From Arcobacteraceae bacterium (lineage in GTDB: Bacteria > Campylobacterota > Campylobacteria > Campylobacterales > Arcobacteraceae), in the NCBI GenBank assembly GCA_048268245.1, contig JBLWVX010000019.1, positions 1 through 49,283 of the forward strand: 49,283 nt of DNA, written 5' to 3'. Numbering within the stretch: position 1 is the first letter of the stretch; each line of letters begins with the position of its first letter. The notes beneath the pieces were generated by a model, which made no database searches, was not told where the DNA came from, and was given only the letters and a program-made list of their open reading frames with translations. Both the position numbers and the translations under genes were made by a program. This document shows positions 1,807 through 35,500 of the stretch, piece after piece.

Positions 1807-1825
1807 GGTTTTATAAAAACCTTAA
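1803..1825. terminator. Hairpin between convergent genes, probable bidirectional terminator
   Basis: ttaaggtttt / aaaaccttaa inverted repeat overlapping both stop codons. Confidence 0.5.
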
Positions 1826-3147
1826 AAAACATAAACTGCTGCGAACCATCCAAATAAAATCAATGGAATATTATAGTGAATAAAAGTAGGAACTACAGTA
1901 TCCCATATATGGTCATGTTGCCCATCTACGTTTAATCCCGATGTTGGTCCTAGTGTACTATCTGAGGCTGGACTACCAGCATCACCAAGAGCTGCTGCTG
2001 TTCCTATAATTGCAATTGTTGCCATTGCAGAAAAATCCATTTGCATACATAAAGGTGCATAAATAGTAGCAATAATTGGAATAGTTGAAAAAGAGGACCC
2101 TATTCCCATAGTAATAAATAAACCAACAATTAGCATTAAAAATACTGCAAGAGATTTATTTTCACCTATTAAATCAGAGATAGATGCTACAAGTGTTTCA
2201 ACACCTCCTGTTTCATTTATCACATTTGCAAAACCATTTGCTGCTATCATAATAAAACCAATCATTCCCATCATCTTAAGACCTTTGGTAAAGAAGTCCT
2301 GTGTTTGATTTGCTTTAATAACTCCAGCAACTATAAAGATAATAAATCCTGCAAGAGAACCTAAAATAATAGACTTAGTATAAAGTTGTAAACCTAAAGC
2401 CGTAACTATTGATGCTAAAGCAATAACTATATAGAAGCTATTTATCTCATTTTTTTGAGATTCACTTTCAAGTATCATATCCACATTATAAACTCTTTTT
2501 TTTCTATATGTAAAAAACATAGCCGTAAGTAAACCCAAAAACATTCCAAGAACAGGAATAGACATTGCAATAGGTAATTGAGCACTTAATGCTTCTACAC
2601 CATTATCAACTAAGTTTTTAAGTAGAATCTCATTTAAAAATATACCTCCAAAACCAATAGGAAGTAACATATAAGTTGCAACTAAACCAAATGTAATAAC
2701 ACAAGCTACAACTCTTCTATCTAATTTTAATTCAGACATAGAATGAAGTAAAGGCGGGATTAAAATAGGAATAAATGCAATATGCACAGGTATAAGATTT
2801 TGAGAAGAAATAGCTGCTAATAAAATAAGTGTAAGCATTAAATATTTAATATAAATAAACTGCATAGAAGAAGAGCTATTACCTACTTTTTTTATTATCA
2901 TATTTGATAATAAATCTGTGATTCCAGACTTTGAAATAGCTACAGCGAAAGTTCCAAGCATAGCATAACTAAGTGCAATTGTAGCACCATCTCCTAGACC
3001 AGCATTAAAAGCTTTTATAGTTTCATTTATATCTAAACCTGCACTAAGTCCTCCTACAATTGCTCCAATTATTAAAGCAATAACAATATTTACTCTAACT
3101 AATGAGAGTAAGACCATAGCCATAACGGCAATAATTACAGAGTTCAT
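1822..3147 (-). CDS. Na+/H+ antiporter-family (YuiF-like) membrane transporter, possibly for amino acids
   Basis: 441 aa polytopic protein; family motifs [45 protein letters not shown]. Confidence 0.8.
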
Positions 3148-4017: not shown

Positions 4018-4536
4018 ATAATCTCCTCAATATTAATGAAATAATTATACAGTGTCTAACTAAATAATACTTGATTTTTTACAAATTCCTATTTAGATTT
4101 ATTCTTGTGTATAAATACAAAAGATATAATTACCCAGTATTTAAAAAGTAACTCTACTTTTTTAAATATAAAATAAAACAAATATTTTCTCACTTATAGT
4201 ACTTGAGCTTTAGCATTTTTTTTGATTTTAAACTATATTTTCACCTCAATTTCAAATCAAAAAAACAATACCAACTCTATTGAAGAGTGGAAAAATAAAA
4301 GAGCTCTTTCATGGTATTTATATAAATACTTACAATAATATACTTCATATTTATCCCACTGTAAACTTAGCTTACGAAAAACATGCTGCTGCTCCTACAA
4401 CACAGCATTGGTATGATGCAGCTAATTTTAAAAATAAAACATTTATTTGTAAGTTTTAATTATATTCCTAATAGTTCAATTAAAGTATCAGGTACAAGCA
4501 GGCATATAAAAGGCCACATATTTTTATATTGGTCTT

Positions 4537-4956
4537 TTATATCCCCATAATCGTAGCAACAAGATTTCTATTACCACCATAATCTCTATGTTCACCTAGA
4601 TATATTCCCTGCCAAGTGCCAAGGTTTAATTCACCATTTGAAATAGGTATTGTAAGGCTTACTCCAAACAGTGAAGATTTTATATGAGCTGGCATATCAT
4701 CATCCCCTTCATAAGTGTGTTCAAAATATGTTTTATTTGAAATCACATCATTTACAAATCTTTCCATATCATCTCTAACACTACTATCACAATTTTCATT
4801 TATTGTAAGACTAGCACTTGTATGTTTTATAAAAAGATTAAGTGTGGCAACTTTAAAATTTTTTATTTCATTAAGATTTGATAGAACTTCATTTGTTATT
4901 AAATGAAAGCCTCTATTTTTTGATTTTAGTTTAAATTCTTTTTGTATTATATTCAT
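4537..4956 (-). CDS. yjbQ: Secondary thiamine-phosphate synthase YjbQ (UPF0047)
   Basis: HTSASLTINEN, EGDDDMPAHIK, LGTWQGIYLGEHR signatures. Confidence 0.92.
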   Translation of the reverse strand: MNIIQKEFKLKSKNRGFHLITNEVLSNLNEIKNFKVATLNLFIKHTSASLTINENCDSSVRDDMERFVNDVISNKTYFEHTYEGDDDMPAHIKSSLFGVSLTIPISNGELNLGTWQGIYLGEHRDYGGNRNLVATIMGI

Positions 4957-5000
4957 AAGTTTAATGATATCAAGTTTTATATTAGAAGATTAAGAAAAGC

Positions 5001-5034
5001 GTAAAACTACCATATGACACTTAGGTAGCTTTAC
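5001..5034 (-). terminator. Intrinsic terminator downstream of the 25-aa small ORF
   Basis: Minus strand gtaaagctacc-N12-ggtagttttac (one G-U pair) followed by gcttttct. Confidence 0.6.
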
Positions 5035-5070
5035 TTTAATAGGAACTATATATATTCAGTTTTTTAGTTT

Positions 5071-5148
5071 TTATAAGCTAGCACTTATAAAACCAATAGC
5101 TGCAAAAGATACAACTACTAAAACAATTAAGTTTCTTAAGAAAGTCAT
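5071..5148 (-). CDS. Unannotated 25-aa hydrophobic small protein MTFLRNLIVLVVVSFAAIGFISASL
   Basis: ATG start, AAAGGA RBS, one transmembrane-length segment, own conserved promoter (5191-5247) and downstream terminator. Confidence 0.65.
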   Translation of the reverse strand: MTFLRNLIVLVVVSFAAIGFISASL

Positions 5149-5190
5149 ACTAAATCCTTTAAGTTTTATTTCTTGTTTGTGGCTAATATA

Positions 5191-5247
5191 ATTGTATTGG
5201 ATAATTGTCAATTTCTAAACGTAATTTTTCTTTACAATTTCTTGACA
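5191..5247 (-). promoter_or_regulatory. Conserved promoter copy A (putative OmpR-type direct-repeat box plus -10)
   Basis: Minus strand TGTCAA-N5-TGTAAA-N19-TTGACA-N9-TACAAT; same spacing as copies at 8727 and 9033. Confidence 0.75.
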
Positions 5248-5262
5248 TATTTATTTTATATT

Positions 5263-6648
5263 TTAAAAGACAATTGAAAAGATATTATGTGGTTTAGTAT
5301 AGTTATATTCAAGTTTGAAATCATGCATTTGAAGAATTTTATTTACAATATTTAATCCTAAACCATGACCCACTTGCTGATTTGGTTCTCTTGTAAATGG
5401 TTGAGTATAGTATATAAGATCACTAGCAAGTTTATTAGCAATGTTTTTAACTTCAATTCTATTTTCATTTACTTCAATTTTAATAGGATATTCATCTGCA
5501 TATTTCATTGCATTATCTATCAAGTTTTTTAGTGCTATTGTTAGATAATACTTATCAGCATGAATATAGAAATCATCTTTTATATCAAGTTCTATTTTAG
5601 ACTCATCATCAATTGAAAGTTTCGATAATGATTCAAGAATTAATGTACTTGTTTTAAACTTAGAAGGGTTTACTTTTGCAAAATTAAGTTTCTCTCTTTG
5701 TAAAAGCTTACTTGTAAGCTCTTCAATATCAACAATAACACTGTTTAAACTATCAATTTCTTTATTATCTTCACTGTGTTTTAAATTCTCAAGTAAAAAT
5801 TTTGCTTTTGAAATAGGTGTTTTTAGTTCATGACTTATATTTCTTAAAAGCTCTTCTCTTGAATGAATAATATCACCTTGTTTTTCAAGATATGAATTTA
5901 AATTACATGTTATTTCAGTTAATTCATTGTTTTTACCAATATCAACTTTTATGGTATTTTCATCATCTTTAAAAAGCTGTAAAACACCTTTGTTTAATTT
6001 ATCAAGTTTGTCTTTAATTTTTTTAGTAATACTAGAGGAAATAATAAAAGATAAAAGAAATGCAATAAAAAATAATATTACTAATTCAACTTTTATTGTA
6101 TCAATAAACTGATTTCTACTTTGCTCAGTCTTATCAAGTTGAGACTGTAAGTAAAGTATCTCTTCATTTAAAAGCTTAGTTACTTTAAAACTTATATTGT
6201 TGAACTTTTTGTTAAATAAATCAAAATCTTCTTCACTTTTACTTATGAGTACTAATTCATATAATTCATATTTGATTAATTTTTCAACTTTTAGTAAGTA
6301 TTTAAATATCAATTCTAAGTTCTGTTTTTCACTTATAGATTCAGAGTTCTCAATAACTTGTTTTTTCTTTAGAATCAATGTCTTAAAAAGTTCATCTGAT
6401 TTACTTAGACGTTTTTTTACTACATCTATTTTTTCATAATCAGTTACAATATCTAAAACAATCCAAGAAAAAGAGTTATTAAACTCTTTTAGCTTTTCAA
6501 CTCGTCTTATTTGATCATATCTGTGAGTTTGACTTTTATGAATTTCACTTAGATTAAAAATAGTGTAAAAAAACACTCCTATTATAAATAAAATAATAAG
6601 TAAAATAAGTGAAAATGAAATAAAAAGTCTTTGTCTAATTGTTATCAC
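5263..6648 (-). CDS. Membrane sensor histidine kinase (TM-periplasmic-TM-HAMP-HisKA-HATPase)
   Basis: H-box ISHELKTP, N-box KNLIDNAMKY, G-box GHGLGL; GTG start overlapping the regulator. Confidence 0.93.
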   Translation of the reverse strand: MITIRQRLFISFSLILLIILFIIGVFFYTIFNLSEIHKSQTHRYDQIRRVEKLKEFNNSFSWIVLDIVTDYEKIDVVKKRLSKSDELFKTLILKKKQVIENSESISEKQNLELIFKYLLKVEKLIKYELYELVLISKSEEDFDLFNKKFNNISFKVTKLLNEEILYLQSQLDKTEQSRNQFIDTIKVELVILFFIAFLLSFIISSSITKKIKDKLDKLNKGVLQLFKDDENTIKVDIGKNNELTEITCNLNSYLEKQGDIIHSREELLRNISHELKTPISKAKFLLENLKHSEDNKEIDSLNSVIVDIEELTSKLLQREKLNFAKVNPSKFKTSTLILESLSKLSIDDESKIELDIKDDFYIHADKYYLTIALKNLIDNAMKYADEYPIKIEVNENRIEVKNIANKLASDLIYYTQPFTREPNQQVGHGLGLNIVNKILQMHDFKLEYNYTKPHNIFSIVF

Positions 6649-7315
6649 AAAATTTATACCCTATTCCCCAAACTGACTTGATGTATCTTGATTCTTTTGA
6701 GTCATCATTTATTTTAAATCGAATATTACTTACATGCATATCAATAGTTCTATTTTTTGTATCTTCTTTTAAAGAAGTTTGATTTACAATATCTTCTCTT
6801 GATATAACTTTATTAATATTATCAATAAACATAAAGAAAATTTCTGATTCTATTTTGGTAAACTCAATTTGTTGATTTTCTAAAAAAACTCTTTCTTTAT
6901 TTAAATCAATTAATAAATCATTTATTTGAATTTCATCACTGTCATTATATCGTTTAAGAGTAGCATCAATTCTTAAAACTAATTCCCTTGGTTCGTAAGG
7001 TTTAGAGAGATAATCATCTGCTCCAAGTTCAAAGCCATAAATCTTATTTCCAATATCATCCCTAGCAGTTGATATAATAATAGGAATGTTTTTTATGTTT
7101 TTTAGTTTTTTAAAAAGATCAAAGCCATCCATTCTAGGAAGGCCTAAATCTAAAATAATAATAGAGTATTTGAAGTGATTTGCTTCAAACTCCTCTAATG
7201 CTTCTAAAGGTTGAGAATAAACACTACATGTATAATTGTAATCTTTTAAAAAATTACTTATAAGTTTTTGTAGTTCAATATTATCTTCAATCAATAGAAC
7301 ATTTTTATTTTTCAC
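6635..7315 (-). CDS. OmpR/PhoB-family response regulator
   Basis: LLIED, ILDLGLP (phospho-Asp), GADDYLSKP, winged-helix RTIDMHVSNIR...VWGIGYKF; GTG start. Confidence 0.95.
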   Translation of the reverse strand: MKNKNVLLIEDNIELQKLISNFLKDYNYTCSVYSQPLEALEEFEANHFKYSIIILDLGLPRMDGFDLFKKLKNIKNIPIIISTARDDIGNKIYGFELGADDYLSKPYEPRELVLRIDATLKRYNDSDEIQINDLLIDLNKERVFLENQQIEFTKIESEIFFMFIDNINKVISREDIVNQTSLKEDTKNRTIDMHVSNIRFKINDDSKESRYIKSVWGIGYKFCDNN

Positions 7316-7348
7316 TTTTTAGCCTCATTTTCTAATATCTTATAATGT

Positions 7349-8680
7349 TTATTTTTTCTTTGATACTGATTTTAACCAAAAATATCCAAATAAACCTGAA
7401 AATAAAGAAGCACTTAGAATTCCTATCTTAGCTTGGAAAATAAGTTCAGGATTTCCAACAAAAGCTAAATCTGCAACAAAGATAGACATAGTAAATCCAA
7501 TTCCACCTAAAAATGCCACACCAAATACTTGACTCATACTACTATCTTTTGGAAGTTGAGCAATCTTTAATTTTACAGCTAACCATGAAACTCCAAAAAT
7601 TCCAATCACTTTTCCTAAAATAAGACCTAAAATAATACCTAAAGAAACAGGCTCTAAAATTGTTGTTCCAATAGAGCCAAAATCTATTTTTACTCCAGCA
7701 TTTGCTAAAGCAAAGATTGGGATAATTAATAGTGCAACAGGTAAATGTAGATTATGTTCTAACCTTGCAGCAGGAGTTCCAACTTCATCAATCTTATCTT
7801 GAATATTTGTTAAAATCTTTTTTTGTTCTTCATGCATCATATGGTTTTCTTGCACAGGATATTTATCATATTCATCTAATAAATGTTTTGTATCAGCAGT
7901 TAATGTTTCTGGTGCTCTTTTTGGAGTTGATGGTATTGCTAAGGCTGCTAATACACCTGCGATAGTTGCATGTACACCTGACTCAAGCATAAAAAACCAC
8001 ATAAATAAACCAACTACAAAATATGGTAAAATCATATGAATTCCGAATCTATTAAATAGAATCATTACTGCAAACATCGCTCCTGATAAACCTAATGGAA
8101 GCATATTAATAGTTTCAGTATAAAATATTGCAATAACTAAAACAGCACCTAAATCATCTACAATAGCAAGTGCAACCAAAAATGTTACAAGTGCAGTTGG
8201 AACTCTTTTTCCTAATAAAACTAAAGCACTAATTGCAAAAGCAATATCTGTTGCCATTGGAATACCCCAACCAGCAGTAGCTGCAGTTCCATAGTTTAAA
8301 CTTGTATAGATTAATGCAGGGAAAACCATACCACCAATAGCAGCTAAAATAGGAAGCATTGCTACTTTCAAGTTAGATAATTCTCCTGATGTAAGTTCTC
8401 TTTTTATTTCTAATCCAATTAAAAAGAAGAAAATTGCCATAAGAGCATCATTTATCCAATCTTGCAATGAATGAGAAAGTTCCCATGAACCTACATTAAA
8501 ATCAATATAAGTATTAAAAAAGTGTGCATAGGTTTCATATAAAGGACTATTTGCTAATACTAATGCCAAAACTGTCATTATTATCAAAATCAAACCTGTT
8601 GTTGTTTGGGCATGTAAGAACTCTTCAAAAGGTGTTGATACTTTTTTAAAAGCCTTTTCCCAAGGTGCGTATAGTTTCAT
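7349..8680 (-). CDS. nhaA: Na+/H+ antiporter NhaA (copy 1)
   Basis: WINDALMAIFF, GWGIPMATDIAF, LAIVDDLG, GVHATIAG, GIGFTMSIF. Confidence 0.95.
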   Translation of the reverse strand: MKLYAPWEKAFKKVSTPFEEFLHAQTTTGLILIIMTVLALVLANSPLYETYAHFFNTYIDFNVGSWELSHSLQDWINDALMAIFFFLIGLEIKRELTSGELSNLKVAMLPILAAIGGMVFPALIYTSLNYGTAATAGWGIPMATDIAFAISALVLLGKRVPTALVTFLVALAIVDDLGAVLVIAIFYTETINMLPLGLSGAMFAVMILFNRFGIHMILPYFVVGLFMWFFMLESGVHATIAGVLAALAIPSTPKRAPETLTADTKHLLDEYDKYPVQENHMMHEEQKKILTNIQDKIDEVGTPAARLEHNLHLPVALLIIPIFALANAGVKIDFGSIGTTILEPVSLGIILGLILGKVIGIFGVSWLAVKLKIAQLPKDSSMSQVFGVAFLGGIGFTMSIFVADLAFVGNPELIFQAKIGILSASLFSGLFGYFWLKSVSKKK

Positions 8681-8726
8681 TTAAACTCCTAGTAAAATTT
8701 TTAACTATTTATTTGTAAAATGTCAA

Positions 8727-8783
8727 ATTATACTAATTAAATGTCAAGATAGTTACACATTATTTATTGACATTTTCTTGACA
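8727..8783 (-). promoter_or_regulatory. Conserved promoter copy B, upstream of the nhaA-regulator-kinase operon
   Basis: Minus strand TGTCAA-N5-TGTCAA-N19-TTGACA-N9-TATAAT. Confidence 0.8.
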
Positions 8784-8839
8784 ATAATTGAAAAAGGTAT
8801 TATATAACTTTTATGTAAGGGGTTTATCAAAAAAGATTT

Positions 8840-9027
8840 TGTAAAGAAGATGAGATAAGTAGTATTCTTTAGCTCTAGTTAAATAAACTGTTAATTTGTT
8901 AGGTGGGGTGTAAAAAGAATTCTAATCTATCTCATCTTAAAAATATTGGAGAATATTTTTTAATCACGGTTTATAATGTTGAAAATTGCACTACTACTTT
9001 ACATAAGCATATACTAGTAGTGATTGT
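8840..9027 (-). ncRNA. Candidate structured small RNA (or long nhaA leader); ends approximate
   Basis: Begins just downstream of promoter C. Three stems: 9015-9022/8989-8996; 8952-8960/8939-8947 with CUCC loop; 8914-8938/8847-8870 enclosing a C-rich loop. G-U pairs favour the minus strand. No credible ORF. Confidence 0.5.
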
Positions 9028-9032
9028 ACAAA

Positions 9033-9089
9033 ATTATATATTAGAATTGTCAATTTTAAAATGTAATATCTCTTGACATTTTATTGACA
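9033..9089 (-). promoter_or_regulatory. Conserved promoter copy C, upstream of the candidate sRNA
   Basis: Minus strand TGTCAA-N5-TGTCAA-N19-TTGACA-N9-TATAAT. Confidence 0.78.
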
Positions 9090-9154
9090 AAAAAAATAAT
9101 ATTATTTTAAATACAAATATGTAAAAATAAGATATAATCAATTAGGATTTACAC

Positions 9155-9415
9155 ATGAAAGAAAAAAAAGAAGACAATTCATTATCAGAAAAAATATTTA
9201 AAATTTTAGTTGCACTAGTTGTACTAGTTTTTGTAATAATTATTATACAACAACCAAGTGGTAGTTTTTCATTTTCAGAAAATAAATTAAGAGAATCTCC
9301 AAAAAGTAGGCCAACACCAATTGATAGTGTACCCAGTGAACTTAAATGGACTGATTCATTTAAAGGTATTTCAAATGAAAAAAGTGATTCTAAAGATAAA
9401 GGCTTTTTAGACTAA
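9155..9415 (+). CDS. Hypothetical single-pass membrane protein (86 aa)
   Basis: TATAAT at 9133-9138, AGGA RBS, hydrophobic ILVALVVLVFVIIII segment. Confidence 0.7.
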   Translation: MKEKKEDNSLSEKIFKILVALVVLVFVIIIIQQPSGSFSFSENKLRESPKSRPTPIDSVPSELKWTDSFKGISNEKSDSKDKGFLD

Positions 9416-9425
9416 GGAGTTTAAA

Positions 9426-9578
9426 ATGGAATTAATTTTTATAATCTTTTATATAGTTATGTTTCTTATAGCTTTAATTCTTTCTTATCAATCTATTAAA
9501 TATTTTAAAACTATGTGGAAATTTAAAAATAGAAAAAAAGATGGTAGTGAAGATAAAGACTTTAAGTATTTTGATTAG
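9426..9578 (+). CDS. Unannotated 50-aa single-pass membrane protein (MELIFIIFYIVMFLIALILSYQSIKYF...DFKYFD)
   Basis: AAGGAG RBS overlapping the upstream stop; N-terminal TM helix with basic tail. Confidence 0.65.
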   Translation: MELIFIIFYIVMFLIALILSYQSIKYFKTMWKFKNRKKDGSEDKDFKYFD

Positions 9579-10452
9579 TATCTTTATTTACAACTGAAAT
9601 TAATACAGCAACTGAAACAAGTAAAGTTGATATTAAAAGTTTCAATGTAAATACTTCTCCTAAGAAAAGAACACTTAAAATAATAGCAATAACAGGAACA
9701 AGCAACTGTAAAATACTTGCAGTAACAATTTTAATACAAGGTAAGACTTTATACCAAATAACATATCCTATAGCAGATGTTATACTTCCCGATAAAAAGC
9801 TTAATAAAACTCCATTAAAACTAATTTGAAGTGAATCAAATAAAATAAATAGAAAAAATATCAATGTAAAGATCAAAGCTTTAAAGAAGTTATCGTAAGT
9901 ATTAAATAATGCATCTTTTGAACTCTTACCAATAACAGAATAAACTCCCCATGCAACTCCTGAGATAATCATCAATGTTAAATGAAAATATGAAATATCA
10001 AAATCTTTGCTAGGATATAGTAAGTATGATAGACCAATAAAAGCTAATATGATTCCAATAAATTTATTTATATTGATTTTTTCTTTATAAAATAGTGAAG
10101 TAATAAGCATTGTTAATTGAACTGCTGTAAATAGTAATAGTGTCCCAAAACCTGCTTCTAAGTTTAAATAAGAGTAAGAAAAGCCAATTGCATATATAAA
10201 AAGCATAAAAGAGCTAAGCCAATTACCTTTTAAACTTATCTTCTTTAGTTTAGATTCTTTTTTACTTTCTCTTATTGTGATTAAAATAAGTAGTGTTAAA
10301 AAAGCAAAAAAGACTCTAAAAAAAGTAAATGAGTAAGCATCTATATACTCATTTACTAAAGCTATTTTACATAAAATAGAGTTTAGACTCAAAAATATTA
10401 AAGAAAGAGTAATTAAAATAAAAAGTTCGAACTCTTTCTTTAAAAAACTCAT
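9562..10452 (-). CDS. DMT/EamA-family transporter
   Basis: About 10 TM in two EamA repeats; AWGVYSVIGK, QLLVPVIA..LFLGE. Confidence 0.88.
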   Translation of the reverse strand: MSFLKKEFELFILITLSLIFLSLNSILCKIALVNEYIDAYSFTFFRVFFAFLTLLILITIRESKKESKLKKISLKGNWLSSFMLFIYAIGFSYSYLNLEAGFGTLLLFTAVQLTMLITSLFYKEKININKFIGIILAFIGLSYLLYPSKDFDISYFHLTLMIISGVAWGVYSVIGKSSKDALFNTYDNFFKALIFTLIFFLFILFDSLQISFNGVLLSFLSGSITSAIGYVIWYKVLPCIKIVTASILQLLVPVIAIILSVLFLGEVFTLKLLISTLLVSVAVLISVVNKDTNQNT

Positions 10453-32563: not shown

Positions 32564-35500
32564 TTAAGACCTCTTTACTTTGTATAAAATAGCATATAAA
32601 ACAGGTATAAAACCTAATGTTAAAATCGTAGAGAACATTAAACCAAATATAATAGAAATAGCCATAGGTTCCCACATTTCACCACCACTATACCATAAGG
32701 GAATTAATCCAAAGATTGTAGTAATAGTTGTAAGAACAATAGGCCTAAACCTACTAACACAAGCTTCTATAATTGAATCATATAAACTTAAGCCATTATC
32801 ATTTTCAAGTTTTATTCTCTCTAAAAGAACAATTGCGTTGTTTATTACAATACCACTTAAAGAGATAATTCCTAAAAGAGTCATAAATCCAAAATATGAA
32901 TTCATGCTATAAATCCCAATTGATACCCCAATAACACCTAAAGGAATAGAAATAAGTATAATAAATGGCTTTCTAATAGAGTTAAATTGAGCAACCATAA
33001 GTAAAACTATAACCATAAAAGCAAGGGGTAAATTCTCAACTATTGACTTATTTGCTTTTCCTGAGGCTTCATACTCTCCACCAAATTCATAATAATACCC
33101 CAAAGGAAACTGTTTTTGTAACTCATCCATAAAAGGCTGTATTTTTTCAAATACTGCTATTGCATTTGCTCCTTGGTTTATATTTGCTCCAATTGTTACT
33201 GTTTTTAATCTATCTCTTCTAATAATTTTTGATTCTTCAAAGACTGCTTTTACAGAAGCAACCTGAGATAAAGGAATATTTTTTCCACTACTTTGAGAGT
33301 AAACACTAATTGATTTAAATCTATCTAAATCATCTTTTGTATTCTCATTAGATCTTAAAACTATAGGTATTAACTTATCATCTTTTCTAAAAGTTGTAAC
33401 CTCAAAACCACTTAAGGCACTTTGCAATGAGATTGCAATATCAAGGTTTGAAATACCCTCTTTTAAAGCTTTTGCCTCATCAATATCCACAACAAACTTC
33501 TTGTTTCTTATACCCCAATCATCAACAATAGTTTTAACTTCATCGTAGCTTGATAACTTTTGTTTTATTATTGAACTTAACTCAAAAAGTTTATCAACTT
33601 CTTTTCCACTTATTCTTATCTCAATTGGTTGCTTTACAGGAGGTCCGTTTGCTAAAACTTTTGCTGAAACCTGCATATCAGGAAAACTATTTTTAGCAAA
33701 CTCTTCCACATCTTTTTTTACACTATATAGATTTTTATACTCTTTTACATTTACTAAAATCGTACTATACTCTACACTTGCTAACTCTTGGTCATATGCC
33801 AACCAAAACCTTGGAGCACTCTGACCTATAAAAGATACAAAGTTTTTAACCTGATGTTTTTTTATTATATATTTTTGATTTATATACCCTTCTATTTTTC
33901 CTACAGCTTGTTTTGTTGTATCTATATTTGTTCCAACTGGAAGTCTAAGCTCTAAGGTAAAACTAGGTTCACTTGAAGGTGGAAAAAACTTTTTTGGAAC
34001 CATATCTAAGACTTTTAGAGAACCTACAAAAATCAAAATTACAGCTATTACAGTTAAATATCTGAATTTTAAAACAGTTTTTAAAAACCCTCTATAATAA
34101 AAATAAAACTTGCTCTCTTTATCTACAAGCTTTTTCTTTTTCATAAAATATTTACTTAAAACAGGTGTTAAAGTAAGTGCTAAAACCCAAGAGGAAAGTA
34201 AAGTTATAGTAACTACTTTAAATATAGAGTTTGTATACTCTCCTGTGCTTGATTTTGCTAAAAAGATTGGAAGAAATGCTGCTGATGTTGTAAGTGCAGA
34301 TGTTAAAAGTGGTATTTTTAATTCATTTGCACTTTGCAATGAAGCTTCAAATACACTCTTTCCTCTTTGCATTAAAACCATAATAGACTCACTCATAACA
34401 ATAGCACTATCAACTAAAAGCCCAAGAGATATAATAAGTGCTGCTAAAGATACTTGATCTAGCCAAATATCAAAAATACTCATGATTATAAAAGAAGTCA
34501 AAACAGACATTGGAATTAAAACAGCAACAATAAGTCCTGTTCTAAAACCAAGAGAAAATAGCATAACTAAAACAACTAAAGCCATAGCTTGAAGTAAGTT
34601 ATCTACAAAGTTTCCAACAATTTGCTCTACTATTCTAGGTTCATCAAAAAGCTTTTCTAATTTTACACCTAAAGGAAGTTTATTTTGAATTTCTAACATC
34701 AAGTTATCAAGTTTCTCTCCAAGCTTTATAATATCCCCATCTTTTTTCATAGAAATAGCTAGAACTATTGCATTTTGGGCATTTTTTCTTACTATGAAAC
34801 TACTTGGGTCTTTATATTCATACTTTATGTTTGCTATATCTTTTAAGTATATATACTCACCCGTTACTAAAGGAACAATTGTATTTTCTATTTGTTTTAT
34901 ATTTTCATAATTTCCAGTTGGTTCAACTGACAATCTTGAAGTATCAACTTTTATACTTCCACCTGATAAAACTATATTTTTTTGCTCTAAAATATTCTTA
35001 AGATATGAAGCACTAAGATTTAATTTTGCTAATTTTGTATTATCAAACTCTACATAAACTCTTTGAGGTTGAAGTCCTAGTAACTCAACCTTAGCAACCT
35101 CATCAATTCTTAGTATAATATCCTTAGCATCATTTGCAATATCTTCAAGCTCTTTATATTCTAAGCCATCACTTGTAATTGAGATTAAATTTCCATAAAC
35201 ATCTCCAAACTCATCATTTACTATAGGTTGGCTTGTTCCATTTGGTAATGACCTACTTCCTTTTTCAACTTTTCTTCTAAGGCTATCCCAAATCTCACGC
35301 ATATTTTTGTGCTTTTCTAAAATATTTACAAAAATTATTGATACACCATTTTTTGAAGTTGATTTTATATTATCAAGTTCAGGCATCTCTTGTATAGTTT
35401 TTTCTAGTTTATCAGTTACAAGTTGCTCAACTCTTTTTGCACTAGCTCCTGGAAAGTATGTTACAACTGTTGCAGTTCTTATTATAAAACCTGGATCTTT

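Follow-up and report, generated by a model that had tools for sequence, protein, structure and literature searches.

A 49,283-nt stretch of DNA from an Arcobacteraceae bacterium (assembly GCA_048268245.1, contig JBLWVX010000019.1), which is called the window here, contains the Na+/H+ antiporter gene nhaA together with genes for a response regulator (RR) and a sensor histidine kinase (HK), and around them three short elements of one layout, which we term modules. What reads these modules, and what do they control? The features concerned are as follows.

4992-5034, minus strand: terminator-like hairpin with an 11-bp stem and a GCUUUUCUU tail, 3′ of the micropeptide gene
5071-5148, minus strand: micropeptide gene, 25 aa (MTFLRNLIVLVVVSFAAIGFISASL), downstream of module A, preceded at 7 nt by the Shine-Dalgarno sequence AAAGGA
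5191-5247, minus strand: module A, predicted micropeptide promoter-operator, TGTCAA-GAAAT-TGTAAA-N19-TTGACA-N9-TACAAT from 5247 to 5191 (DR1 5247-5242; DR2, TGTAAA, 5236-5231; TTGACA 5211-5206; -10 TACAAT 5196-5191); begins 15 nt past the kinase stop codon, predicted transcription start ~5184
5263-6648, minus strand: sensor histidine kinase, 461 aa, its start overlapping the end of the regulator gene
6635-7315, minus strand: gene for a response regulator of the OmpR/PhoB family (226 aa), starting with GTG 33 nt past nhaA
7349-8680, minus strand: nhaA, encoding a Na+/H+ antiporter of 443 aa; starts with ATG at 8680, downstream of module B
8721-8726, minus strand: further TTGACA immediately 3′ of the module B -10, offset by 21 bp relative to the first inverted half-site
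8727-8783, minus strand: module B, predicted nhaA promoter-operator, TGTCAA-GAAAA-TGTCAA-N19-TTGACA-N9-TATAAT from 8783 to 8727 (DR1 8783-8778; DR2 8772-8767; TTGACA 8747-8742; -10 TATAAT 8732-8727); predicted transcription start ~8720
8829-9026, minus strand: candidate non-coding transcript unit of ~200 nt, downstream of module C, with a U-rich tail to ~8829
9033-9089, minus strand: module C, TGTCAA-TAAAA-TGTCAA-N19-TTGACA-N9-TATAAT from 9089 to 9033 (DR1 9089-9084; DR2 9078-9073; inverted half-site TTGACA 9053-9048; -10 TATAAT 9038-9033); predicted transcription start ~9026

The module in the host genome and in the family

The preliminary description had claimed three 57-bp minus-strand elements sharing the layout TGTCAA-N5-TGT(C/A)AA-N19-TTGACA-N9-TA(T/C)AAT, with spacers that differ, and both points can be read directly from the letters. 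A relaxed search of the window that allowed N17-21 returns exactly these three sites, every one with N19, while 100 dinucleotide-preserving shuffles give no match at all. The motif scan that had been called for was extended to the whole assembly (57 contigs, 2,681,560 bases, 27.9% G+C), where the full pattern again occurs three times, always within the studied locus. The direct-repeat pair alone occurs four times genome-wide; the fourth pair (C7:52520) is taken as chance, since it is internal to an ORF in a flagellar-type cluster and has no -10.

The scan of orthologous loci was equally productive. The module is present in 48 of 184 family genomes, with 108 matches against 3 for a reversed-pattern control, and its N5/N19/N9 spacing is invariable in the real sites of relatives, where hexamers and spacing are kept while spacer letters diverge. 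The proposed -10 assignment is borne out by TA.AAT at exactly N9 in 110 unique instances compiled from relatives, and the module always stands at a fixed distance upstream of the -10 box and the gene start. Both flanks of nhaA-RR-HK carry it in 26 of 31 loci, in the order module-nhaA-RR-HK-module-peptide. Module C is kept in 5/6 genomes of the host genus and is specific to that genus. The TATAAT-TTGAC (or TTTAC) arrangement seen at the -10 of module B recurs in the consensus of the nhaA-class modules (31 instances). Symmetric variants in relatives have a further half-site over the -10, and in some relatives there is a full dyad of two pairs.

The protein-coding genes between the modules are readily classified. 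NhaA matches PF06965 at 1e-148 (residues 20-436) and TIGR00773 with 414 bits, above the cut-off of 254. The OmpR/PhoB-type regulator that had been claimed for the locus is indeed encoded there, with a receiver domain (PF00072, 2.8e-24) and a winged-helix Trans_reg_C domain (PF00486, 3.6e-17). Its best solved relative is BaeR (1e-30); it falls below the cut-off of all 25 NCBIfam families shown (best RpaB, 160.9 bits against 330), so that the named equivalogs tried, PhoB, OmpR, CpxR, KdpE, BaeR and others, were rejected. The kinase has two transmembrane helices around a periplasmic four-helix bundle (approximately residues 35-185), followed by HisKA and HATPase domains (Pfam), and its AF2 model (pLDDT 85) places helices at 4-69, 74-100, 105-134 and 139-227. 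The sensor bundle carries conserved acidic residues; its fold is generic, with weak matches to 4HB sensor domains, none at E<=0.001.

Two small predicted outputs

The micropeptide had been proposed as one arm of the regulon from the window alone, and comparison with relatives argues for a genuine gene. The orthologs number 28 ORFs (25 unique), each 25-27 aa long, with a conserved Shine-Dalgarno site, codon-position entropies of 15.6/8.4/28.1 (the third position varies most) and six invariant residues, S14, F15, I18, G19, I21 and S22. This signature supports its status as a real coding gene, as judged from sequence. No Pfam or NCBIfam family matches it at E<=0.01, which also disposes of a known small-protein family of the MgrB type by sequence, and 7/8 orthologs checked are missing from a 15-billion-protein collection. 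The gene has its own upstream module in 28 loci, and in genera g6 and g15 peptide gene and module are inverted together. If the module is the regulator's site, the micropeptide gene would thus be driven by a site of its cognate regulator. The terminator-like hairpin behind the gene is weak evidence, since its fold z is only -1.7.

What the peptide does is harder to say. It would be a membrane peptide of N-in/C-out topology whose helix has a single conserved face (S14/F15, I18/G19, I21/S22), most likely binding a membrane partner, and it could modulate either the kinase, as MgrB does, or antiporters. We give a little under even odds to the reading in which it belongs to cation/proton antiporters, or to some other membrane effector, as a modulating or accessory subunit and is not a feedback regulator of the kinase. 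Peptide paralogs immediately precede an NhaC-type gene and Mrp operons (G128 and G125), and in one genome (G010) the peptide promoter is the sole strict module, which one would hardly expect of a pure feedback inhibitor. The peptide nevertheless accompanies three unrelated antiporter families and so no single one of them has it as a dedicated subunit; it also stays beside the kinase gene at five loci where nhaA is missing (L094, L100, L110, L117, L118), while one genome (G004) retains nhaA-RR-HK without it.

The unit downstream of module C begins with a 5′ hairpin (9022-8989), followed by an AAUAUU-CUCC-AAUAUU hairpin (8960-8939, CUCC at 8951-8948) and by a long stem, AAGAUGAGAUAG (8938-8927) with CUACUUAUCUCAUCUU (8862-8847), that encloses the C-rich loop CACCCCACC (8910-8902) and leads into the U-rich tail. 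Its minimum free energy is -34.4 kcal/mol (z -3.9), and 0/200 shuffles fold equally well. Covariation is found in 3/27 pairs only, the 12-bp stem being invariant and therefore uninformative. Five species have no shared ORF on either strand downstream of module C. Positions 8775-8945 are covered by none of four RNA or RNA-labelled runs (fragmentary metagenome contigs). In other genera a different module-driven RNA occurs, with compensatory changes in 5/13 stem pairs.

This ~200-nt unit, found in the host genus only, may be either a trans-acting sRNA or a leader. In the leader reading, which we hold to be possible though somewhat the less probable, it would be a cis-acting attenuator in which transcription stops at the long stem and U-rich tail or reads through into nhaA, as a second, conditional tier of control. 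The unit indeed precedes nhaA immediately and in the same orientation, its end being 45 nt short of module B; a crude target scan yielded no trans target that was coherent or convincing; and in 5/5 species the long stem is followed by a pyrimidine- or U-rich tail, in a form atypical for a terminator. Against this, module B is a complete predicted nhaA promoter just ~45 nt further on, so that a leader is not needed, and trans-acting sRNAs typically have C-rich apical loops. Known cation riboswitches include the Li+ nhaA-I/II and Na+ DUF1646 classes; between 4500 and 9800, on both strands, no cation riboswitch or other relevant Rfam family appears at E<=5, the only rows being miRNA and snoRNA families at chance level.

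The regulator and the predicted mechanism

We called kinase orthologs by sensor domain identity of at least 45%, for which 49 of the 184 family genomes qualify. The module is found in 47/49 of these and in 1/135 of the others, an almost perfect co-occurrence. The sole carrier lacking the ortholog (G024) has its module in front of an operon that ends in a paralogous RR-HK pair, and of the two apparent exceptions, one (G085) has a copy with two mismatches upstream of its regulator gene. These comparisons support a tie between the module and the nhaA-linked two-component system. With a probability of about three in four, we read the three modules as composite promoter-operators of the regulator at 6635-7315 that together make up its whole strict regulon in this genome.

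It had been claimed that the regulator controls its own operon and two unannotated outputs. The comparisons support this claim in part; autoregulation is not universal, since at G010-type loci the regulator operon has no module. The Na+/pH homeostasis theme, for its part, is strengthened by relatives in which the module fronts peptide-Mrp operons, a peptide-NhaC-type antiporter gene and NhaA-like genes. On the genomic record, then, modules and two-component system appear to form a real, coherent cation/pH regulon. The preliminary description did not recognise this as a described system, and our literature search likewise found no published description of such a regulon.

It is improbable that the module is recognised by some other transcription factor, merely co-inherited with the system. 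For OmpR-family proteins a dyad of half-sites at a distance of 25 bp is unusual, but the 11-bp direct repeat is their typical geometry, no regulator gene other than the OmpR-family RR is conserved at module loci, and in three relatives (G128, G118 and G125) regulator genes of that same family, orphan or paralogous, are followed by the module. Least probable are ordinary constitutive promoters or mobile-repeat remnants with TTGACA as the -35: TTGACA is the canonical -35 hexamer, the host genome uses 17-bp spacing (TTGACA-N17-TAYAAT, 20 cases against ~3 per other spacing) and a consensus scan finds weak -35-like hexamers within modules A and C, but here TTGACA is separated from the conserved -10 by 9 bp instead of 17 bp (4 cases genome-wide, 3 of them the modules), no -10 is conserved 17 bp downstream, the keeping of hexamers alone marks a binding site rather than a copied repeat, and the module, with only 3 copies in the host genome, co-occurs with the kinase.

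With the adjacent regulator as the reader of the modules, the system would work as follows. The periplasmic four-helix bundle of the kinase would sense a cation- or pH-related cue and the kinase would phosphorylate the regulator, a head-to-tail dimer of which would bind the 11-bp-period direct repeat TGTCAAGAAAN-TGTCAAGAAA, placed by the proposed -10 at about -63 to -47, and recruit RNA polymerase to promoters with a weak -35. The inverted TTGACA, at about -27 to -22, would be a second contact for the same regulator, most likely capping expression by repression at high regulator~P, though co-activation is also possible. The first output would be nhaA-RR-HK, positive autoregulation being coupled to Na+/H+ antiport; the second would be the membrane peptide and the third, in the host genus only, the RNA with C-rich loops.

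Two observations on operator position may be added. The direct repeat lies further upstream than a classical PhoB-type box, and extra half-sites are found over the -10 in the symmetric variants of relatives and at the start site in nhaA promoters.

A more ambitious joint reading seems unlikely to us in full. There the peptide would be the primary, ancestral output and a hitherto unrecognised, universal small-protein modulator coupling a periplasmic Na+/pH sensor to NhaA, NhaC-type and Mrp antiporters; the dyad operator would act as a band-pass, on at low and off at high regulator~P; the peptide promoter would be the sole strict target in some lineages; and each genus would have recruited its own non-coding RNA.

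Known systems and meaning for the family

In the PhoQ/PhoP system of Enterobacteria, an OmpR-family regulator acts on a direct repeat, autoregulates, and controls a cation transporter, the kinase-feedback peptide MgrB and the sRNA MgrR. By analogy, the parts predicted here are alike: an OmpR-family regulator, a direct repeat, its own operon, a transporter, a small membrane peptide and an RNA. There is no sequence relationship, however, and the targets here are Na+/H+ antiporters; the 25-aa peptide, unlike MgrB, has no periplasmic domain and its feedback role is putative, while the operator carries one more half-site, inverted and within the core promoter. KdpD/KdpE genes also lie beside the transporter operon that they control, kdpFABC, in which KdpF is a hydrophobic peptide of ~29 aa. 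The likeness is in the two-component system adjoining a cation transporter and in the small hydrophobic peptide of the unit, but kdpF is the opening gene of the transporter operon, its product being a P-type ATPase subunit, whereas the peptide here has its own promoter, is invertible and goes with three antiporter types. Among named kinase families, that of Helicobacter ArsS/ArsR (NF038389) scores best, at 168 bits, and shares a pH-related theme; the score is under the cut-off of 250, so by that test the kinase, with its four-helix-bundle sensor, is not an ArsS member.

Boxes of ArcA, PhoB and CpxR have letters such as TGTTAA-N5-TGTTAA and CTGTCAT-N4-CTGTCAT. TGTCAA-N5-TGTCAA resembles them in being a direct repeat of hexamers with 11 bp from centre to centre; for ArcA boxes, compare PMC3798270. 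The module differs in having a further, inverted half-site, with exactly 19 bp separating it from the repeat upstream and 9 bp separating it from the -10; in some relatives the whole is a full dyad of two pairs. The textbook regulator of nhaA is NhaR, a cytoplasmic LysR protein. According to PMC6307784, E. coli NhaR exerts dedicated control of nhaA under high salt or high pH; against that cytoplasmic LysR-type regulator, the predicted system here combines a kinase in the membrane, with its sensor in the periplasm, and a regulator of OmpR type, both co-transcribed with nhaA.

The locus would thus be a compact alternative to NhaR, in which a periplasm-facing kinase and its regulator are joined by a sharply defined predicted operator (3 in this genome), a micropeptide missed by gene callers and lineage-specific RNAs. 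To our knowledge, sodium and alkaline sensing and the induction of Na+/H+ antiporters are largely unknown outside enterobacteria. The micropeptide would add a new family of small membrane proteins, the inverted half-site between -35 and -10 is a predicted operator design whose logic can be dissected, and the module may serve as a motif for regulon prediction across the bacterial family.

Three putative promoter-operator elements around nhaA

The locus encodes a Na+/H+ antiporter (nhaA), an OmpR/PhoB-type response regulator and a sensor histidine kinase (the last two abbreviated RR-HK), together with three 57-bp elements, modules A, B and C, each consisting of a direct repeat of the TGTCAA type, an inverted half-site TTGACA and a -10 box. 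The features are given below, module sequences being direct reads.

9155-9415, plus strand: divergent gene for an 86-aa single-pass membrane protein, adjoining module C
9089-9033, minus strand: module C, TGTCAA-TAAAA-TGTCAA-N19-TTGACA-N9-TATAAT
8783-8727, minus strand: module B, TGTCAA-GAAAA-TGTCAA-N19-TTGACA-N9-TATAAT
7349-8680, minus strand: nhaA; PF06965 at 1e-148, passes the NCBIfam equivalog cut-off
6635-7315, minus strand: OmpR-type regulator gene, 33 nt after nhaA; PF00072 and PF00486
5263-6648, minus strand: histidine kinase gene, overlapping the regulator stop; HisKA and HATPase (Pfam)
5247-5191, minus strand: module A, TGTCAA-GAAAT-TGTAAA-N19-TTGACA-N9-TACAAT
5148-5071, minus strand: micropeptide ORF of 25 codons, MTFLRNLIVLVVVSFAAIGFISASL, with an AAAGGA Shine-Dalgarno site
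1822-3147, minus strand: NhaC-type antiporter gene; PF03553 and PF13726

The preliminary description had reported three identically built minus-strand elements, and this observation is confirmed. A pattern search with N17-21 allowed returned exactly these three sites, each with N19, while none of 100 dinucleotide-preserving shuffles contained a module match, and the assembly as a whole (2.68 Mb, 27.9% G+C) has three copies of the full pattern, all of them at this locus. A fourth direct-repeat pair, at position 52520 of contig C7, was rejected as a chance occurrence because it has no -10 and falls within an ORF belonging to a flagellar-type cluster. Module B precedes the nhaA start by 47 nt, module A starts 15 nt past the kinase stop and upstream of the 25-codon ORF, and module C sits within a 474-bp gap with nhaA on one side and the divergent membrane-protein gene on the other. 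The regulator is of the OmpR/PhoB type as claimed, both PF00072 and PF00486 having been found; it reached no cut-off among the NCBIfam equivalogs, and the kinase scored best against the NCBIfam family ArsS, with 168 bits where the cut-off is 250.

The divergent 86-aa gene is confined to this genus, in every case beside module C. If the TATAAT near 9125-9130 is its -10, both divergent promoters would have the direct-repeat pair about 55 bp upstream; in two species an insertion of 19-20 bp (about two helical turns) is found at this position.

This organism uses a canonical -35 element, as seen from the 20 occurrences of TTGACA-N17-TAYAAT in its genome versus about three at other spacings. The N9 spacing occurs four times, three of them being these modules. 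Given that spacing, and since no conserved -10 was found 17 bp 3' of the module TTGACA, this hexamer is ruled out as the -35. If positions are set by the assigned -10, it spans roughly -27 to -22, and the direct repeat roughly -63 to -47; A and C contain hexamers that weakly resemble a -35 (TTTAGA, TTTAAA), placed between the repeat and TTGACA and 16-17 bp from the -10. Paralogous clusters of relatives show a full dyad, TGTCAA-N5-TGTCAA-N19-TTGACA-N5-TTGAYA, whose fourth half-site overlaps the -10, and nhaA promoters carry an extra TTGACA or TTTACA directly 3' of the -10 and spaced 21 bp from the first (8726-8721 in the window). RNA polymerase would probably be impeded by half-sites that cover the -10 and the start site, and for this reason we favour a limiting or repressing role of the inverted half-site at high levels of phosphorylated regulator over the alternative that it co-activates. 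A symmetric operator, in which N19 separates two direct half-sites from two inverted ones and which matches the pattern on both strands, was seen at three loci (L085:1309-2460, L080:1571-2808, L093:1860-1912), where an orphan paralog of the regulator and an operon of peptide and Mrp antiporter genes lie next to it.

Conservation and the two-component system

Orthologous loci were obtained by BLAST of the 4.2-kb region against 41 relatives, and the pattern was scanned in 184 genomes of the family, which gave 108 module hits in 48 genomes (three hits for the reversed-pattern control). The module, unique to this locus in its own genome, is present at orthologous loci. The order module-nhaA-RR-HK-module-peptide is found in 26 of the 31 mapped loci; the remainder comprise a system without the peptide (G004), RR-HK and peptide without nhaA (G010), the order RR-HK-module-nhaA(-like) in two and a paralogous cluster in one. 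Across loci, the hexamers keep their sequence and their N5/N19/N9 spacing, and the spacer sequences diverge. The module consensus was built from 110 unique instances, including reverse-strand readings of symmetric variants.

Kinase orthology was judged by the sensor region (residues 1-240), with at least 45% identity required in a search of the 184 genomes. Orthologs were found in 49 genomes, in one as a fragment, and five more genomes have only paralogs of 21-26% identity. Of the 49 ortholog-bearing genomes 47 have the module, versus 1 of the 135 without, counts that are descriptive as related genomes are not independent; this co-occurrence argues that the module is tied to this two-component system. 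The one module-bearing genome without an ortholog, G024, has a module with one mismatch before an operon that ends in a paralogous RR-HK pair. The two apparent exceptions among the 49 are G085 and G086, of which G085 carries a module with two mismatches upstream of the regulator gene. In G085 (locus L096) nhaA is deleted to its last codons, leaving the module directly upstream of RR-HK; similar nhaA 3' remnants occur at L110 and L111.

Proposed peptide and RNA outputs

In the loci set, 28 modules have an ORF of 25-27 aa next downstream (25 unique sequences), each having a Shine-Dalgarno site of the AAAGGA type 6-8 nt ahead of its ATG. Summed column entropies for codon positions 1, 2 and 3 are 15.6, 8.4 and 28.1 (21 unique 75-nt coding sequences), and residues S14, F15, I18, G19, I21 and S22 are invariant. 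This coding signature of Shine-Dalgarno site, third-position variation and invariant residues indicates that the unannotated micropeptide is a real gene. The invariant residues share one helix face (i, i+4, i+7), which suggests packing against a partner helix. Two genera have the peptide gene inverted and convergent with the kinase gene, the module being inverted along with it. An exact look-up of eight orthologs in a collection of 15 billion proteins found seven absent and the eighth present and unnamed. Searches of Pfam and NCBIfam gave no family, and to judge from its sequence the micropeptide is outside every described family. Genome G118 (L092:3634-4038) has two tandem modules with a peptide-like ORF behind each, the first ORF apparently broken after a T run.

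Module C and the sequence that follows it are confined to this genus (five of six genomes, the sixth lacking the whole system), and BLAST over the 41 relatives matched the RNA region in the genus only. The candidate RNA unit, about 200 nt at approximately 9026-8829, folds well, at -34.4 kcal/mol (z -3.9). It contains no ORF common to the five species on either strand, and comparison of 4500-9800 with Rfam (E<=5) returned only chance-level miRNA and snoRNA rows. Conservation extends to an AAUCAC/GUGAUU stem, a CUCC-looped hairpin (four of five species) and a U-rich tail 3' of the long stem (five of five). A 12-bp stem, AAGAUGAGAUAG/CUAUCUCAUCUU, surrounds a C-rich loop and, in three species, also a hairpin insertion of about 55 nt. 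Covariation is sparse, seen at 3 of 27 pairs, and the long stem is invariant. Eighteen metagenome loci with kinase relatives lacked the AGATGAGATA...TATCTCATCT stem, and the genome of the window has no second copy of the unit.

The unit may be a trans-acting sRNA or a terminated leader of nhaA. A target scan, in which three unpaired segments were paired by duplexfold with 2,129 translation-initiation regions, gave nothing coherent and no well-scoring regulon gene (nhaA, at -10.2 kcal/mol, was near the mean); the scan is crude, its gene starts being heuristic. The sequencing runs matched to the locus (X1, X2, X3, X5) are short metagenome contigs in which 8775-8945 is uncovered and transcript ends are unreadable; X1 and X2 are probably DNA and apparently one data set, and the run search found no run with half or more of the sampled words. 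The best duplex of the CUCC segment among the 2,129 regions (-19.6 kcal/mol), a lead only, is with a 523-aa ORF near 32860 on the minus strand of contig C28, whose Shine-Dalgarno region offers about 14 contiguous nt of complementarity to the CUCC hairpin.

A distinct predicted RNA driven by the module was seen in other genera and in one metagenome contig; its 5' part is the invariant UCUU(A/G)AUAAAGUG, and a 13-bp hairpin with compensatory changes at five pairs comes next. It was located as follows.

L081, 2395-2498
L082, 2385-2485
L083, 2362-2463
L085, 10137-10235
L080, 10642-10745
L105, 1072-1170

In three species a conserved gene for a 29-aa hydrophobic peptide lies 3' of this RNA. This second RNA with its peptide gene suggests that small RNAs, like small peptides, are recurrent outputs of the operator. 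The second RNA is absent from the genome that contains the window, where the relatives' 'UCUUAAUAAAGUG' RNA was sought and not found.

Known systems, sensor and regulon theme

The preliminary description did not recognise a described system here, and our full-text literature search likewise found no paper on this nhaA-RR-HK/module system. PhoQ/PhoP with mgtA, MgrB and MgrR is the closest analogue in logic, and KdpDE with kdpFABC the closest in gene neighbourhood. The module repeat resembles ArcA, PhoB and CpxR boxes. To our knowledge, none of these systems, nor NhaR, joins a direct repeat to an inverted half-site placed at a constant 9 bp from the -10. NhaR, the known regulator of nhaA, is a LysR protein (PMC6307784).

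The periplasmic part of the kinase is a predicted four-helix bundle (pLDDT 85), for which Foldseek gave only weak matches, to 4HB sensor domains and NarQ, none at E<=0.001. Conserved sensor residues include H42, E51, E55, D66, D70, E103 and E107.

The NhaC-type gene of the window has no module and is found 2 kb beyond the micropeptide gene, on its downstream side. Genome G128 (L084) has a 441-aa counterpart of identical Pfam domain content directly behind a module and a peptide paralog, so the window arrangement may be derived, with UPF0047 and RraA-like genes inserted.

In G128 a module and peptide paralog also precede an Mrp-type multisubunit antiporter operon (MnhE, G, B, C, D-like), and in G125 a module is upstream of a peptide gene and then MnhE. 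A more distant clade has the module upstream of NhaA-like genes (43% identity), and in one genome a universal-stress-protein gene is behind it. Comparative genomics largely bears out the earlier reading of a probable regulon. With three unrelated kinds of Na+/H+ antiporter, NhaA-like, NhaC-type and Mrp, found behind one operator in relatives, the proposed theme of Na+/pH homeostasis for this regulon appears supported.
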